Source: an uncultured delta proteobacterium (GTDB taxonomy: Bacteria > Desulfobacterota > Desulfobacteria > Desulfobacterales > SG8-13). Taken from it: a stretch of 64,000 nucleotides of DNA. Positions 56,988-64,000 of this stretch are shown one piece after another. Position numbers and translations under genes: made by a program. Position 1 is the first letter of the stretch. Each line of letters starts with the position of its first letter. The notes below the pieces were generated by a model that did no database searches, was not told the origin of the DNA, and saw only the letters and a program-made list of their open reading frames with translations. The DNA lies in contig CAWKCK010000017.1 in assembly GCA_963848135.1 (NCBI GenBank), forward strand, positions 1,344,538 to 1,408,537, in the 5' to 3' direction.

Positions 56988-57416
56988 TCAGAAAGGGATG
57001 TCATCATCCTGCGAATCCGAGTACGGCGTCTCGGCGTCCGGAGGTGGGGGCCCACCATAAGCGTCCCGCGACTTGGCAGACTCTTTGGGTCCCAAGAACT
57101 GGACTTCATTGGCAACGACTTCGGTGGTGTAGCGCTTGTTACCATCCTTGTCCTGCCAATCCCGGGTCTGCAACCGTCCTTCCACATACACCTGCCGGCC
57201 TTTCGAGAGATATTCGCCGCACAACTCGCCAAGCTTACGCCAGGCGACGATACGGTGCCATTCTGTCCGCTCCTTTTTCTCACCGCTGCTCTTGTCGTTC
57301 CATTCCTGTGACGTCGCAATCGAAAAAGTTGCAACGGCAGTGCCGTCCGGCGTGTAGCGGACTTCCGGATCGCGCCCCAGGTTACCGATCAGAATAACTT
57401 TGTTGATTCCGGCCAT
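56988..57416 (-). CDS. ssb: Single-stranded DNA-binding protein
   Basis: [41 protein letters not shown] tail. Confidence 0.97.
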
Positions 57417-57432
57417 GTTTTCTATCCCTCCC

Positions 57433-57500
57433 TGTCTATATTCTCAAAACATAGTGTCACTGTCGCAAACATAGTGTCATTGGCCGAAAGATAATGTCAC
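57433..57500 (+). mobile_element. Putative transposon end (TGT terminus + three transposase-binding-like repeats; Tn7/IS21/IS1202-type architecture)
   Basis: TGT at 57433; AAACATAGTGTCA at 57447 and 57467 and AAAGATAATGTCA at 57487 (20-bp period); coincides with the start of AT-rich DNA. Confidence 0.6.
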
Positions 57501-57888
57501 TTCAGAAAAAAAATATCGTTCATTTTGCCGGTCTCAATAGCGGCTTCTGGACATTTTCCCCCAAGAAAGTGCTCGACCCTTGGGCCGGGTATTCCATCTG
57601 ATGGATTCGCTAGGTAATTTTTAGAATTAATTTCCAGCCCTGAAACACTTGTTGATATATGAACTACCGAATCTGACGATTATGTCAAGAGGGCTTCTAT
57701 CGTCCCTTCCTGATCATGACAATCAAGGTGGGACATTACCCGTAATTCGATAAAAAAACAAGTTTCGAGGGGTTATGGTTATTTTTAGTTTTTAAGAGAC
57801 CCTCACAGTAAGGGTATATAGCAGCAGGTTGGACTTTCGCCGTGGCAGCTTTTGCCGTGATAGGTTGATCTTATATTGAGAAAAATTG

Positions 57889-57920
57889 AAAAAAGCCGAC
57901 TACCAGATGTAGTAGTTGGC
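57889..57920 (-). terminator. Intrinsic terminator downstream of the NfeD gene
   Basis: AAAAAA-GCCGACTAC...GTAGTTGGC. Confidence 0.55.
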
Positions 57921-57987
57921 CTTCATGGTTTCGGAGTTATTAAAAGTTTCGCTTAAATGAAAACAATTAAATATAATTCTGGACACC

Positions 57988-58287
57988 TCACCTCTTCCAA
58001 GGGTTGACCTGCAACGTTAACCCTTCCACATTTTGGATAACCACTCTATCACCAGGCAATAAAGGGGCTTCACTGACAGCCTTCCATAGTTCCCCGTTCA
58101 CGAAAACTTTTCCTTCATTCTTCTTCCAGTGTTTGACCTCACCCACCTTACCCAACATGCCTGAAACCCCACAAATAGGTTTTCTCTTTCTTCCCATGAA
58201 AAACCAGAACAGAGGAAAGGCCACGTGCTCAATCAGCTCAAAAAGAATAAACCCTATAACCAGAGTCAATATAATATTTTCTATCAT
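57988..58287 (-). CDS. NfeD family protein (short, C-terminal OB fold)
   Basis: TM segment then G..G.V..GKVFVNGELWKA.S...G.RV.I..VEGL.L.V. Confidence 0.82.
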   Translation of the reverse strand: MIENIILTLVIGFILFELIEHVAFPLFWFFMGRKRKPICGVSGMLGKVGEVKHWKKNEGKVFVNGELWKAVSEAPLLPGDRVVIQNVEGLTLQVNPWKR

Positions 58288-58354
58288 CCTTTGTTCCGGG
58301 TTTAAATAATGGAATCAAGCATTAAGCCTACCAAGTCAATCGCCTATGCGAATA

Positions 58355-58936
58355 TCACTCAGGAATCTTAACATCGTCATCATCATATATCCCATTTTCG
58401 GCGGTTGTGTGACATGCTATACAGTTCGACAATGAGCCAATAGATTTACGTTTGAAAATCGCGGGGTCCAATTCATGATGCTTTTTACGGATATAAGGAA
58501 TATCGGTAATCCGTATGGGTACCTGGCCTCCCAAACATCTCATGATTTTCACTGATCGCTCTGCTGAAGAGTTCTCCGCACCATTCGTTGTGAGATAATC
58601 TGAAATGTTTTTTATTGTAGCCGGATCGGTCTCAATTTCCTCTCCGAAATGGTTATTAAGTTGGTTTAAAATTTTCAGCCATGACGCGGATGGCAACAGC
58701 TCCGGCTGATATGCGAAATGACACTCACCACATGTTTCTTTATATGTTTGGTTGGTCACCGGCTTCAAATGGTCGTTGTTGTCATGACCGTTTCTATCAT
58801 CATCAACCTTTTGACGTCCCCCTCGATACCGGTATCTTTTTTTATAATGGTCATCATCAGAAAGAGCTTCGAAAATACAACTGAATGTCAAAAAAAACGA
58901 AACTGTAAATATGATGTATTTGGTAGAAGGTTTCAT
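58355..58936 (-). CDS. Diheme cytochrome c (DHC family)
   Basis: Signal peptide; CGECH..Y.PELLP..SW...L.NHFG and NCIACHT.AE.G.YDDD.VKIP. Confidence 0.88.
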   Translation of the reverse strand: MKPSTKYIIFTVSFFLTFSCIFEALSDDDHYKKRYRYRGGRQKVDDDRNGHDNNDHLKPVTNQTYKETCGECHFAYQPELLPSASWLKILNQLNNHFGEEIETDPATIKNISDYLTTNGAENSSAERSVKIMRCLGGQVPIRITDIPYIRKKHHELDPAIFKRKSIGSLSNCIACHTTAENGIYDDDDVKIPE

Positions 58937-58990
58937 TTTATCTCCTATTCAATCACATTGAGGCTGAAATGAATCGTAACAATTGGAAAT

Positions 58991-59920
58991 TTAACCTCTG
59001 AACCGGGTCAATTTTCCAACAATTGCTCTGGTGACCTTACGTATTAATTTAAAACACCCGACCAGTAATTTCAGAATCAATATCACCAAGATTTTGCAAA
59101 CGATAAAGAAGGTTTTTAATTTGTCTTTTGAAATAATCCTGTTCAAAAGTATTGGTTCTAATTTTATTCCAGTTCGGTACGTCTTGTTGCTAACAGAATC
59201 GTTTTTAGTATACACTTTCTTCTTTAACTCTTTATCCTTTCCTAAACTTCGACATATACCTCCTGTATCTGAATAATAAATTGCGTAACTCTTACAGAAA
59301 TATTTGGTTCCTTCCCAGTCCGGCAATTGAATAAGTTTTTGCAGAAATTCTCCTTTTCTAATTCCGGTTCGTTTGGTTTCACCTTGTTCAAGGAACAAGA
59401 TGCTACCATTTATAAAACATCTTCCTTCATTTAAACTGTTCAAACCGCTACATGATTTCCAAAACAGTTGGCCGTTGTTTTTTTTCATGATTTCATACTG
59501 GTTTAGTTTATAGGAAATATCTCCGCTTTTATAAGTCTCAATCGATTTATACTTATTTTTGGTAACCCCTGTTTGAATTGATTCATTTTCTCGGAGAATA
59601 GTTTCATCCTGCAAACGGTTGTTACTTCTCTCAAGAAGTGGTTTGATTCTACCGGTTTTACACTCATAAATCTTGTAGCTCGTGCAGTAGTATTTAGTTT
59701 TTTCCCATTTCGGTAATTTGTTGAGGTGATCCAGAAACTCTCCCTTTAAAAATCCCGGCCCTGCATTAACACCCGGCATTAAATAAAGAATATCTCCATT
59801 TATAAAGCATTTTCCATTTTTCAAAGTACCTAAACCAAAATGGCATTCCCACACCAAATCACCGTACACGTTCTCGATAATTTTATACTCGGATAATTTA
59901 TAGGCGATTGTTTGCATCAT
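58991..59920 (-). CDS. Hypothetical protein with two ~90-aa internal repeats and a C-terminal hydrophobic helix
   Basis: Duplicated YKL..Y.I.....G.L.W....GL..L..G.CFING.IL.L..G...KGEFL..L..LP.WE.TKY.C.SY.IY. Confidence 0.78.
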   Translation of the reverse strand: MMQTIAYKLSEYKIIENVYGDLVWECHFGLGTLKNGKCFINGDILYLMPGVNAGPGFLKGEFLDHLNKLPKWEKTKYYCTSYKIYECKTGRIKPLLERSNNRLQDETILRENESIQTGVTKNKYKSIETYKSGDISYKLNQYEIMKKNNGQLFWKSCSGLNSLNEGRCFINGSILFLEQGETKRTGIRKGEFLQKLIQLPDWEGTKYFCKSYAIYYSDTGGICRSLGKDKELKKKVYTKNDSVSNKTYRTGIKLEPILLNRIISKDKLKTFFIVCKILVILILKLLVGCFKLIRKVTRAIVGKLTRFRG

Positions 59921-60029: not shown

Positions 60030-60444
60030 TTATATAAGAAGAGAGAGATTTTGCAGATACGCAGGTAGAGATCGAGTCTTTAACGGTTTAATATGATGAG
60101 GAAAAATAATCTTTATTAAATCGATATTGGACTGGTAATCAGATAAATTAAATAAAATAGATGGGGTAACAAGTATTTCTAGTTTTAGTTATCGAGTGGG
60201 CACCGTTTGACGCCTTAAGGGTTTGTATGTCCTCCAAATTACAACTTTTGCATTGGGTTCCTAAACAGCGAGTATGAAATAGAAAACTTATACTTGACCA
60301 TTCTTTACCTTGAATACCATGTAGACATGCCCCTCCGCAAAGACACGCTTGCGGCAACAGACTGTTCGCAAAGAGTCCTATGATGAGAAATTTTATAAAA
60401 TACAGTCTGAATATTTTTAAATTTCTCAGCAAATTATTTTCCAT
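60030..60444 (-). pseudogene. Small Cys/His-rich secreted-type protein with a +1 frameshift
   Basis: ACLCGGACLH..FHTRC...CKSC; removing one T from the T4 run at 60183-60186 extends the frame to ...LPAYLQNLSLLI-TAA (60030). Confidence 0.6.
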
Positions 60445-60636
60445 CGTTATAGCCCGTCAAGAATTCCAATGGGCTACCGCAGTTACTCGTTTTTTATAAC
60501 ACATCTTCAAAATGTTATTCAAGACACTTTGGATATTTTTGCAGAAACACAAATTATAAGCCGTAAATTATAGAAGAAACTTTGTAATTGAATATACAGT
60601 CTGGCTATATTCAAAAAATCCGGCTTTCCTAACCTT

Positions 60637-61478
60637 TTATGGCTTGATGTTTGGTTGCAAATCCAATGCCTCGCGCAGAAAGGACACGGCTCGCTTTCGA
60701 CTATCATATGCCGCCTCTGGATCCCACTGAAGAATGGCGGTCTGGTTCTTTGCAAATGGTGCATAACCCTTCCAGGATCCTGCGCGATCGAATCCATGGT
60801 GAGCATCGGGATACAATTTCAATGAAACTACGCCTGGTTGTTTCTCGTTCAACCAATCGCAAAAGTTCTTGCAAGTCTCTCCGTCGCCCCAGGAATCTTT
60901 CTCTCCGCTCATTATAAGTATCGGGGCTCCTGTTGGTCCGGTCGAATCGAAGTGTTTCTTGAGCCATTTGCAGGCGGGATAGAATCCAACGTGAGCAGTA
61001 AATCCTTGCTCATCAGGACCGAGCCACTTTTTGACAACTTTGCGTGAAGCAGCTGTTACGCTAATATGACCACCGAGCGAAAACCCCATGATAGCAATAC
61101 GCTCTGGATCGATACGGGGATTTGAACGTATGGCCACTAATGCTCCAAAAGCCCAAGGCAGAAAAGTTTCAACAGGCGGCCGATCAGAGGGGCCAGTGTA
61201 AATATTGCTTTTAAAATCAACCTCAAATGTTGCTATTCCCGCTTCCAGAAGTGCGGGGCGATGAAATTCGTATCTACTATCTGGTCCTGCTGTCCCATGA
61301 AATAGAATCACCACTGGCACTTTTTGCTGAGCGCTTCAGGTAACGTTAATATACCGCTAAAATTCTTGGTTGTCGGTTCAAGGCCCTTGAATCTAAGAGT
61401 TTGGCGGTTTACCTGCGATGTACACTCAGGTAATGCAATTAAAATAAATAATGCCAATGATATCCGAACCCATGCCAT
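60637..61478 (-). pseudogene. Dienelactone hydrolase family esterase split by a -1 frameshift
   Basis: Signal-bearing N-part (61478-61321) and catalytic part (HGTAG, GFSLGG, GEKD, HHGFD) meet at the T5 run 61321-61325. Confidence 0.72.
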
Positions 61479-62224
61479 TGAAATTCTCTTGCAGTTAATA
61501 ATTGCACGATATCGTATGATCCAGAAGCTTTGTGTTACATTGGGATTTTCTGGCAAATATCGGAAACCTCGAAACGTGTATAATTGTATCTAATTGGAAA
61601 TAATGACAATTTAAAAGATACTTTCTGGGCTATTTAAGCTATAACCTGCCTATTGTCAGTGTGTCAAATCAAAATCGTGATCGATCAGTTCCCCAGCAAT
61701 CAAAAATCACAAGAACAATAATCAAAAAGATGCCAATTCCACTTAATGAGAAAGGTATTGCAGAAGGATGCCCTAATGGGGAAAATCGGCGTTGATTTTG
61801 AGAGCGGGGAGGTAGGGCTGTTGGATTGAGACCGGAACTGCAGAACCGTTTTCAGCTGAAATGCGAAATGGAATTTGGAATTTTGGGGTCAGATGACGGG
61901 TTGGCTGGATTTTGGCTTGGGAAAGAAAATGGGGATAAAGATTGGGGCCGAGCATCTGTTTATTGACAAATGGATTCGAGCATCATAAATGCTATGGTTA
62001 AGATAGCCAAAAAGTATATGGAATTACAGTCAGTTGAAGGTATTGGCAAGATAGCTGTAATATCCGCCCCTCCTATTTTCGTGTGATACACGAAACAAAG
62101 CTTGATCGATAAAAAAAATGATGATTCTCCTTGTTCAATTATTTCTATCCCTTGCCACCACAAAGATTTTTCCTATAAGCTGAACAATTAGCCAAATGAA
62201 GGTACACTTTTCGGAGGGACTAAT

Positions 62225-62420
62225 ATGTCTATCGAATCGAGGAATTTAAACTTTTAATTTTGGCGCTTATTTTCTCAGTTATTGGCACTGCCAACCATGG
62301 CGGCTAAACAATAGGATTGGAAGCGTTTTTGCTTCGAACTGGAAGGTGGGCCGGTCTGGCAGGCCAAAAACGACGTGCTGATTCCTGGAAACTCCGGAAC
62401 TGAATTTTTGTTAAGGATTG
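62225..62420 (+). pseudogene. Degraded gene remnant (secreted/outer-membrane protein N-terminus)
   Basis: GGAGG RBS + ATG, early stops, then protein-like FELEGGPVWQAKNDVLIPGNSGTEF. Confidence 0.4.
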
Positions 62421-62439
62421 TTCGCTGGAGAGTAAAAAC

Positions 62440-62817
62440 ATGAAAACCCGCATTTTTCTGATCTTCTGTTCGGTCGGCTTGGTACCGATCGCGTTAGGCT
62501 ATGGAGCCAATCCGTCGGCCACCCTGGACGCCCTCTTTGGCATCACAGTCGACACGACCAATCTCACGCACATCATGCGGGCAGTAATGGGCCTGTATTT
62601 TGGAATGGTCGTGATCTGGGTTTGGGGTGCTTTTAAAAAGCAGATGACCGCTCCGGCGCTCTTGAGCTGCGCGGTTTTCATGCTCGGACTTGCCGCCGGA
62701 CGCGTACTAAGTTTCATTCTGGACGGCCTGCCGCATTGGCTGCTTATCGTATATGCGGTCCTTGAGATTGTGCTCGGCCTGATCGCGATCACCCTTTACA
62801 GGGGAAGGACTACATAG
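62440..62817 (+). CDS. DUF4345-like membrane protein
   Basis: Four TMs; IALGYG, HIMRAVMGLY, FMLGLAAGR.LS..LDG.P. Confidence 0.8.
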   Translation: MKTRIFLIFCSVGLVPIALGYGANPSATLDALFGITVDTTNLTHIMRAVMGLYFGMVVIWVWGAFKKQMTAPALLSCAVFMLGLAAGRVLSFILDGLPHWLLIVYAVLEIVLGLIAITLYRGRTT

Positions 62818-62980
62818 TGGCGAAGGGGCCCGACGGCGGTTCGCTGCGGTTCGCAAGTTTATAAGTTGGAGAATCTCGAAACGGCGCCTGTCCGCGAGTT
62901 ACCGCCCCTGGTGGATTGTTATTCACCGTCCATCCGGCGTTCGCGTTGCCCGTTCATTTTCAAAAAAGGATAAGATAACT

Positions 62981-63631
62981 ATGCGTAAGGCATTGATTGC
63001 CGGTGCAACCGGCGCGATCGGCTCGGTGTTACTGGAATTACTGAACGACTCCGACCAATACTCGGAAATTCACTGTATCGGAAGGCGAGAACCACCCACC
63101 TCAGGCGAAAAGATCAAGGCTCATATCGTCAGCTACGATGAGCTGGATCAGCTCAATTTTCAGCAACCCATCGATGACGTTTTCTGCGCTATAGGGACCA
63201 CCATCAAGACCGCGGGCTCGGTGAAGGGCTTCAAGAAAGTGGATCGAGATTATGTTCATTTAGTGGGCAAACTGGCCCAACGTCTGAACGCGAAGACCTG
63301 CTCCGTGATCAGCGCCATCGGAGCCGACGCCGGATCGTCCAACTTCTACAACCAGACCAAGGGCGAGGCCGAGGAACTGCTGCAGAGCCTGGGCCTGAGA
63401 TCGCTCCGCATCTTCCGCCCCTCCTTGCTGCACGGCGGCCGCGATGAGTTTCGTTTGAAGGAAGTGGTGGGTTTCGTGGTGCTCACGATCATGACCCCGC
63501 TGCTGCAGGGGCCATGGAAAAAATACCGCGCCATCCGCGTCGAACAGGTCGCGAAAGCCATGTATGAAAGCGCTCGGCAAGATTACCCGGCGGTACAAAT
63601 TTTCGAAAGCGACGAGATCCAGCGTTTCTAG
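62981..63631 (+). CDS. NAD(P)H-binding oxidoreductase (YraR/TIP30-like atypical SDR)
   Basis: GATGAIG, FCAIGTTIKTAGS, SAIGAD, Y..TKG, RPSLL.G.R. Confidence 0.88.
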   Translation: MRKALIAGATGAIGSVLLELLNDSDQYSEIHCIGRREPPTSGEKIKAHIVSYDELDQLNFQQPIDDVFCAIGTTIKTAGSVKGFKKVDRDYVHLVGKLAQRLNAKTCSVISAIGADAGSSNFYNQTKGEAEELLQSLGLRSLRIFRPSLLHGGRDEFRLKEVVGFVVLTIMTPLLQGPWKKYRAIRVEQVAKAMYESARQDYPAVQIFESDEIQRF

Positions 63632-64000
63632 CTCAAAGCCATCAACAATCAACCAGATTGATACACGACAAGGCGGCGAAATAGGAAAGCGACGCCCCTA
63701 AAAAACAGAGCACGAACACAATGTCACCATGATACGCGTTTTACTGTTCCCGACATGATATCCAGTTGTAAAATGAAAATTCTATGCATTCCCTGATAGA
63801 CAAATCCCTGGCAAGCAAGCTGTACTATTGGATACCCCGTATTTGTTGGATAGCCAGGACATATCTGTTCAATTAGAACTGACTCAGATGATTATAGGAA
63901 AAGGTGGTGGTTACCCTCGCGTAACAAGGATTCTATTTAATTAAGGCCGGATTTTTTCAGGCCCGCAATATACAGTTCAATCACTCAGCATCCTTTATGA

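Follow-up and report, generated by a model that had tools for sequence, protein, structure and literature searches.

In the 64,000-nucleotide stretch of DNA analysed here (hereafter the window), the region that natively lies upstream of ssb has been displaced by foreign DNA, and comparison of the locus with its congeners supports position 57433 as the edge of this DNA. Directly beyond that edge lie three direct repeats that are tentatively interpreted, as a good possibility, as a transposase-binding array at the ssb-proximal end of a site-specific, cut-or-copy DNA transposon with ends of the Tn7/Tn5053-group type. This interpretation draws on the repeats themselves, their junction with the ssb leader, further copies of the same end in the genome, abutted inverted ends with 5-bp spacers and a conserved position at ssb, all of which can be read directly in the DNA.

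Under the transposon reading, each element would begin with a short tip, and 11-12 bp further in would come 14-bp sites arrayed with a 20-bp period, to which a DDE transposase may bind; the other end of the element would consist of an inverted, imperfect version of the tip and first site, with the sites spaced out. The element would home to one set position, 16-17 nt ahead of the ATG of ssb, the end that faces the gene being the same each time, and the 5 bp between abutted copies (TCCCT) would be target duplications. Successive insertions at this point could have led to a pile-up of at least three elements, which carry cargo and no transposition genes, and this pile-up would separate ssb from its native promoter and its former neighbours.

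The ssb locus and the repeats at its upstream junction

The ssb gene is syntenic with tatA, as it is in congeners, and a search of 40 relatives showed that the congeners align over tatA, ssb and the leader as far as query positions 787-807, corresponding to window 57416-57436, with no congener in that search matching the sequence beyond 57436. A different upstream region was found at ssb in all 11 congener loci that were read out. Ten of these have a common upstream region with TTGACT and TATCAC boxes, followed 170-400 bp further on by a gene for an EamA-type transporter and/or a THUMP-type methylase, and in the eleventh (G003) ssb has a different neighbour. The original prediction, which had proposed a Tn7-like island that replaced the region upstream of ssb, is thus borne out as regards the replacement, with 11 of 11 congener loci differing from 57436 on. 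The comparison with the empty site that it had suggested identifies the EamA and methylase genes as those upstream of ssb in congeners, and in the present genome (G000) these two genes sit on another contig, at C1:189009-191468. Metagenome sequences display several states of the same locus: a 2804-nt contig (X7 record 26) aligns to 57433 and diverges thereafter, another sequence (X2 record 9) continues into upstream sequence of the congener type, and a third (X7 record 27) spans ssb and the whole near end (57124-57777).

As had been noted from the sequence, the Shine-Dalgarno motif CCCTCCC (57426-57432) is directly followed by TGT from 57433, and the DNA becomes AT-richer beyond the junction, with a GC fraction of 0.528 before 57433 and 0.425 after it. 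As the proposed terminus of an element this TGT is ambiguous, as congeners carry a native TGTC at the same place. For that reason the junction is resolvable only to 57433-57437, and the first 2-4 bases of the tip may be native sequence.

A repeat search of the window returned three 14-bp sites with a period of exactly 20 bp, in agreement with what had been predicted, the first starting 11-14 bp inside the tip or homology break (Table 1). The 13-mer AAASATARTGTCA has six occurrences in the 6.03-Mb genome, both strands counted, and these are found only in two arrays, namely the array at ssb and one at C1:210807-210859. When a looser three-site pattern was allowed up to 6 mismatches, the genome yielded only four true arrays, one in the window and three on contig C1, plus a few AT-rich chance matches; with up to 3 mismatches the pattern was absent from all of 400 other genomes sampled from the phylum. 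The possible fourth site, GATTATGTCA, was also located as expected (57678-57687) and it sits inside an inner block of the near end that is conserved across end types: the block TTATGTCAAG with CTACCGAAT ahead of it is invariant in the L- and R-type ends described below, and nearly so once the metagenome contig L061 is added. The near end closes at GAGGGGTTATG, a Shine-Dalgarno motif plus ATG behind which no real gene lies, either in the window copy or in its closest relative on C1 (C1-L). In metagenome contigs the similarity likewise breaks off at 57775-57777. As Rfam had no match in 57300-58100 and the single-strand RNA fold of the near end has a z-score of -0.6, an RNA gene in this stretch is unsupported.

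Table 1. Positions of the features in the window, with the strand and the evidence on which each row is based.
Feature	Position	Strand	Evidence
ssb, sole ssb gene of the genome, putative insertion target	56988..57416	-	Pfam SSB, E 1.8e-42; tblastn, one copy
Native ssb leader with Shine-Dalgarno (CCCTCCC on +)	57417..57432	-	Congener homology to ~57433-57436
End tip (TGTCTATATTCTC)	57433..57445	+	Last 11 bases identical to R-type tips on C1
Whole ssb-proximal near end ('N end'), ~344 bp	57433..57777	+	Homology stops at 57777
Repeat units with spacers	57447-57466, 57467-57486, 57487-57506	+	Repeat search
Putative binding-site repeat 1 (AAACATAGTGTCAC)	57447..57460	+	Repeat search and genome pattern count
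Putative binding-site repeat 2 (AAACATAGTGTCAT)	57467..57480	+	Repeat search and genome pattern count
Putative binding-site repeat 3 (AAAGATAATGTCAC)	57487..57500	+	Repeat search and genome pattern count
Promoter-like TTGAGA-16-TATTTT facing ssb, candidate replacement promoter	57510..57537	-	Promoter scan, weak
Inner block CTACCGAAT...GATTATGTCAAG, holding the fourth site	57664..57689	+	Invariant columns in L- and R-type ends
Unrelated repeat of ~100 bp with GC hairpin, first cargo stretch	57859..57956	.	Six other genome copies, 77-86% identity
NfeD-like protein, dihaem cytochrome c, 309-aa protein without known family	57988..59920	-	Pfam
Dienelactone hydrolase-like, DUF4345 and NAD-binding proteins; no mobility gene	60148..64000	.	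Pfam

Further copies of the end and the organisation of the island

The near end of the window together with the Shine-Dalgarno motif (window 57426-57777, C17:1401963-1402314) is 95.5% identical to C1-L (C1:210787-211135), and these two copies represent the L type. Two adjacent, diverged near-end copies on the same contig, R1 (reaching to C1:252745) and R2 (reaching to C1:237800), are 98% alike and can be aligned to the L type along ~300 bp, with an identity of about 60-68%, having in common with it three sites (of the AAAACATAAGKTCC type), a stretch with TTCAG and ATTCAT, and the inner block CTACCGAAT...TTATGTCAAG. The body of the R type is put at ~345 bp, because the inner ~110 bp of the R repeat belong to a repeat family of their own, which is present in relatives too; when the R end and the module that adjoins it were compared with a sample of 400 genomes of the order, only these inner ~110 bp were matched. 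This module of ~150 bp precedes the near end at all three C1 copies, is never found alone in the genome and reads, outward from the junction, TGGTAAGGACC then AAAATATAGTGTC.

The tip and site of the module form an inverted, imperfect copy of the L-type tip and first site (17 of 25 positions match), with a tip-to-site distance of 11 nt that equals that of the near end and with sites at +12, +71 and +107, of which the latter two (the last one inverted) pair into a long terminator-like hairpin. Since the tips on C1 face each other across exactly 5 bp (TCCCT) at 3 of 3 junctions, each C1 locus is regarded as a pair of abutted transposon-like ends. It had been predicted that an opposite end would be found with inverted sites followed by a 5-bp duplication; three such ends are indeed present on C1, with inverted GGACACTAT/TGACACTAT sites leading to the tip and then 5 bp, although the 5 bp are TCCCT and not the CTCCC that had been anticipated. 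The tips themselves start with TGT in C1-L, in the metagenome contigs L060 and L061 and in the window copy (there ambiguous with the native TGTC), with TCT at R1 and R2, and with TGG at all three opposite ends; in the window copy, TCCCT and the common tip are separated by one additional G. One end of each kind bounds a stretch of 14.9 kb (C1:237801-252745) with TCCCT outside both ends, and its cargo includes cbiK, a paralogue of the NfeD/dihaem cytochrome/309-aa block, cyclase genes and IS copies, with no mobility gene of its own in a Pfam scan of the ORFs.

TCCCT is thus seen in all three abutted junctions; it also flanks the 14.9-kb element at either end and precedes the tip in L060. Within the transposon reading these 5 bp would represent target duplications, but a recombinase core fits as well because the same 5 bp occur at every junction. 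In this regard, an integrative element moved by a tyrosine or serine integrase has to be taken as a serious rival, if an unlikely one. It would make the near end at ssb an attL, produced by crossover at TCCCT in the ssb leader, and the succession of inverted end, TCCCT and three-site end an intact attP-like site with core-type half-sites and arm-type repeats, with repeated integration giving rise to the head-to-tail array. Crossover fits the way in which outer partners (modules A and B, and ssb) and inner bodies (L and R) are shuffled at the tip: module A is joined to an L body and, 95% alike, to an R body, and module B (83% alike) is joined to the second R body, the two R bodies being 98% identical. 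In addition, TCCCT is native to the leader of congeners, sites flank every junction on both arms, and the genome is rich in tyrosine recombinase systems. On the other hand, the ~82 kb examined contain no integrase genes apart from those of an independent two-recombinase unit of 2175 bp, the search for an attR-like junction (module, TCCCT, native promoter) gave none, and the 25-bp imperfect terminal inverted repeat made up of tip and first site, with its offset of 11-12 bp, is a transposon pattern.

The same arrangement on C1 bears on a further possibility, namely that the island carries a replication origin of plasmid or phage type, of which the sites would be the iterons together with an inverted operator. 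Such an origin would be consistent with direct repeats spaced by roughly two helical turns, with the nearby inverted pair of the same site on C1 and with an adjoining A-rich run, but none of the four copies has a rep gene, a dnaA-box cluster or a partition gene beside it, blastn of the near end against 72,556 plasmid records gave no match, and the fixed position at ssb is left unexplained; this explanation is regarded as highly improbable.

Beyond the near end, the window continues with cargo. Its first stretch holds a repeat (57859-57956) unrelated to the near end, and two of the six other copies of this repeat are found no more than 5 kb away from the copy of the two-recombinase unit that C18 carries. 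The block at 57988-59920 is 83-86% identical to C1:240043-243152 (L003:43-3152), inside the pile-up on C1; the C1 copy has an extra VIT-like ORF, and its orientation to the element end is opposite to that of the window copy. Contig C1 also carries brxA, brxB and brxC, the last split into at least three ORFs, at C1:257948-263444 (L003:17948-19695, L004:69-3444), reaching the contig end. PglZ is expected beside BREX genes and was found nowhere in the assembly, and on this ground the island is considered partly unassembled; the BREX system on C1 is either broken or partly unassembled. A repeat of ~360 bp at C1:253130-253496 (L003:13130-13496) has at least 25 copies, distributed over most contigs, with ~90-95% identity.

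Contigs C17 and C1 may well be parts of a single island, at least 82 kb long, with at least three or four head-to-tail elements. Read from ssb, with C1 reversed, this island would comprise the near end and cargo of the window, the end of C17, a gap, the end of C1 with the brx genes, far end A', TCCCT, near end R1 and the 14.9-kb element, then far end B, TCCCT, near end R2 and cargo with many IS copies, and lastly the C1-L junction in inverted orientation, with EamA ~19 kb further on. One inversion must be assumed, because the C1-L junction is inverted relative to this model, and the ends of C17 and C1 have no common repeat to explain the break. If correct, the model accounts for the IS-rich island of at least 82 kb and for the assembly break in this genome. 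A pattern scan and a comparison of the locus gave no opposite end at the EamA-side boundary, and placing the far boundary by aligning the EamA-side intergenic region with congeners was abandoned, the sequences being too divergent. Near the EamA boundary, a minus-strand ORF at C1:191900-192700 (L059:5900-6700) seems to run across an in-frame TGA and may be a selenoprotein or a broken gene; a 139-aa part of it had no Pfam match.

Multiple ends are known to arise where one element lands beside another, as stated in passages of PMC8649781. Target immunity has been described for Tn7-like elements in part of PMC11014353, and such immunity would disfavour the pile-up, because the adjacent R1 and R2 are 98% alike.

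Carriers at ssb and the search for the moving enzyme

An exact-pattern scan of metagenome contigs retrieved two contigs, L060 and L061, and in both of them ssb is followed by the near end. In L060 the tatA-ssb synteny is kept, and the sequence reads leader, TCCCT and then the tip TGTTTAAGTCT, the former being the spacer of the C1 junctions and the latter the tip of C1-L. L061 has a different gene context and an ssb that is 68.8% identical over the first 330 nt, with a near end ~80% identical to C1-L that starts 17 nt from the ssb ATG. The distance between tip and ssb ATG is accordingly 16-17 nt in G000, L060 and L061, with the same orientation in all three, and the unusual attachment site beside ssb that had been proposed from the window is therefore upheld.

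A tree made from the first 330 nt of ssb (14 rows) placed G000 and L060 in one clade (97/98) nested among the 11 empty-site congeners, and L061 outside all others on a long branch, with the carrier state requiring two changes. The same spot must have been entered twice, or else the element was lost precisely several times, which argues for a site-specific element; the tree thus points to site-specific insertion at ssb on at least two occasions, as far as can be judged from ssb phylogeny.

The conservation of the sites upstream of ssb in three or four organisms, together with their location between the promoter-like site and the ssb Shine-Dalgarno motif, could also suggest that a regulator of ssb, from the host or the element, uses them as an operator array, in which case they would form a control region and not a recombination site. 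It had been reasoned that repeats kept at ssb in relatives free of the island would indicate a regulator site, but all 11 congener loci are without the sites and have another conserved upstream region. Moreover, the three further copies in the genome, all on C1, adjoin no gene and face a terminator-like hairpin, the non-coding end is better conserved (~80%) than ssb itself (68.8%) between L061 and G000, and the sites are placed at the edge of low-GC foreign DNA; taken together, an operator array is very improbable.

The stretch 57250-57950 is partly present in 20 sequencing runs among those listed, from 10 studies, with 22-39% of the sampled words found, and these runs come from marine sediment, salt marsh and estuary. 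No joint skipping the element was detected in four metagenome runs examined. Among the reference genomes searched, the near end is confined to this genome: blastn against 400 other genomes of the order gave nothing beyond one marginal 30-bp match. The exact two-site pattern gave 41 loci in a genome contig collection, none of them related, and all were set aside by eye as chance or unrelated 20-bp tandem repeats; the nine loci in viral contigs were likewise all AT-rich unrelated repeats. One contig of Xenorhabdus beddingii (L047:1970-2070, minus strand) has four tandem 20-bp units beginning AAACATAGTGTC, between ORFs of 551 and 564 aa; their core equals that of the window site, a resemblance that may be due to chance.

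The genes that the original prediction had named as worth seeking (tnsABC, tniQ, cas and istAB) did not come to light, in that searches of both the island and the genome yielded none of tnsA, tnsB, tnsC, tniQ, cas and istB. TniQ (PF06527) had 0 matches in G000 (98.65% completeness), with control genomes weak or silent, and 0 in 351 genomes of the order, where the control was silent; the Mu-transpos_C and TnsA N-terminal domains had no match in the genome, the control being silent in each case, which makes these negatives weak. TniB had only two weak matches, in large unrelated frames of 744 and 861 aa on C15 and C3, away from the island. For IstB (PF01695), whose control was positive in 13 of 14 genomes, there was a single sub-threshold match (22.1 bits) far away on C17, and an IS21-type end is thus unsupported. 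Matches to rve numbered 15, all on other contigs or inside IS copies and none adjoining an end, and the five that were examined are IS3- or IS481-like. Pfam and ORF analysis revealed no transposase behind any of the four ends, and the predicted lack of a transposase in the 6.5 kb that follow the repeats also holds for the rest of the contig, which ends 9.6 kb away. The ORFs scanned had neither a resolvase nor a serine recombinase domain.

Several candidates were considered and rejected. Two overlapping tyrosine recombinase genes lie 128 bp from the R2 end within a 2175-bp unit at C1:235039-237213 (L002:15039-17213); this self-contained unit has a 99.95% identical copy at C18:608214-610388, and more distant pairs exist on C5, C17 and C18. 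An rve protein of about 606-613 aa in the pile-up is part of a 2955-bp IS (C1:213401-216355, L001:13401-16355) with an identical copy at C18:441976-444930; this protein has an extended low-complexity tail, and the IS also contains a 348-aa ORF that resembles rve only very weakly. A weak rve match at the edge of C13 belongs to an ordinary IS.

It is also conceivable, although doubtful, that the copies belong to a homing element family not described so far, with an enzyme that the models used do not see, which targets the leader of the sole ssb and captures its transcription.

Transcription of ssb and comparison with known elements

SSB is essential. As the native promoter region is gone from the locus, transcription of ssb must start in inserted DNA, and the gene is therefore probably transcribed from inside it at present. 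The landing point cuts the sole ssb from its promoter, so that the element would have to supply transcription. A candidate replacement promoter, TTGAGA-16-TATTTT, faces ssb in the near end and is also present in C1-L; it is absent from L061 and from the R-type end, and the number of promoter-like sites in the near end does not exceed that in shuffled sequence. If promoter capture did take place, imprecise loss of the element would cost an essential function, and dead copies would consequently persist and pile up at ssb.

Homing transposons are prized for inserting at one predictable, harmless place. To our knowledge, the well-studied ones all land behind or inside the target gene, and landing in the leader of an essential gene is not known to us for any of them. 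The literature searched, which included the main texts of PMC10293859 and PMC8649781, did not mention ssb as a gene at which transposons attach. Should the transposon reading be true, ssb would be added to the known attachment genes, the existence of a target selector recognising where a gene begins would be implied, and mobile DNA would have a way of becoming hard to lose, namely addiction by promoter capture. Overall, the finding is rated as a homing element with multi-site ends of a known kind, at a landing point that is new and unusual, of which only decayed copies have been seen.

In comparison with other systems, the junctions resemble lambda-type att sites and tandem arrays of prophages or islands in having repeats on both arms, a short common core, hybrid junctions between head-to-tail elements and a conserved target gene. 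They differ from lambda-type att sites in that no integrase gene adjoins any copy, no attR partner was found, and the repeats start 11 bp from the crossover and are mirrored like terminal inverted repeats. The ends of IS21 and phage Mu, which carry multiple terminal transposase sites and TG tips, are similar in that several phased sites are present per end, and abutted ends occur in tandem copies of IS21. However, there is no IstB match at the family cut-off and no Mu-type transposase C-terminal domain here, and IS21 and Mu do not home to one gene, unlike the element at ssb.

The closest comparison is with the Tn7-like group. Packed sites at one end and spaced sites at the other are the contrast between Tn7R and Tn7L, and the ends described here are asymmetric in the same manner, with packed sites on the target-gene side and spaced sites on the other. 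According to passages of PMC8649781, Tn7-like elements and their Tn5053/Tn552 relatives have arrays of ~20-bp sites at both ends (three sites left, four right), and the median distance of the outermost site from the boundary is 12 bp. Portions of PMC11014353 describe Tn7-like islands at attachment sites, recognition of a specific sequence within an essential gene and TGT/ACA termini, and part of PMC10293859 presents the TniQ/TnsD target selector as characteristic of the Tn7 clade. The predicted Tn7-like island stands as regards the end architecture, the ssb-specific site and the opposite ends on C1, but not as regards tns and tniQ genes or a far end by EamA. By analogy, the element would work like one with a Tn7-type end, a description that fits the data, and it is not filed as a Tn7-like member, because genes for TnsA, a TnsB-type protein, TnsC and TniQ, and an integrase of its own, were not found.

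Unlike the Tn7-like group, in which tnsA, tnsB, tnsC and tniQ would be expected to mark the element, these genes were found neither in the island nor in the genome; insertion is into the 5' leader, downstream of the promoter and ahead of the ribosome-binding site, rather than beyond the 3' end of the target; conservation of the near end extends over ~344 bp; and the inverted site pair of the far end forms a terminator-like hairpin. What is shared with Tn7-like elements (Tn7, Tn6022, Tn6230 and CRISPR-associated transposons) and the wider Tn5053/Tn402 and Tn552 group is the arrays of ~20-bp sites under both tips, the outermost site ~12 bp from the boundary, a 5-bp spacer that may be a duplication, and the fixed point and fixed orientation beside a conserved essential gene. 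As in the Tn7-like islands described in parts of PMC8649781, PMC11014353 and PMC10293859, several elements would be piled up at this point with defence and IS cargo.
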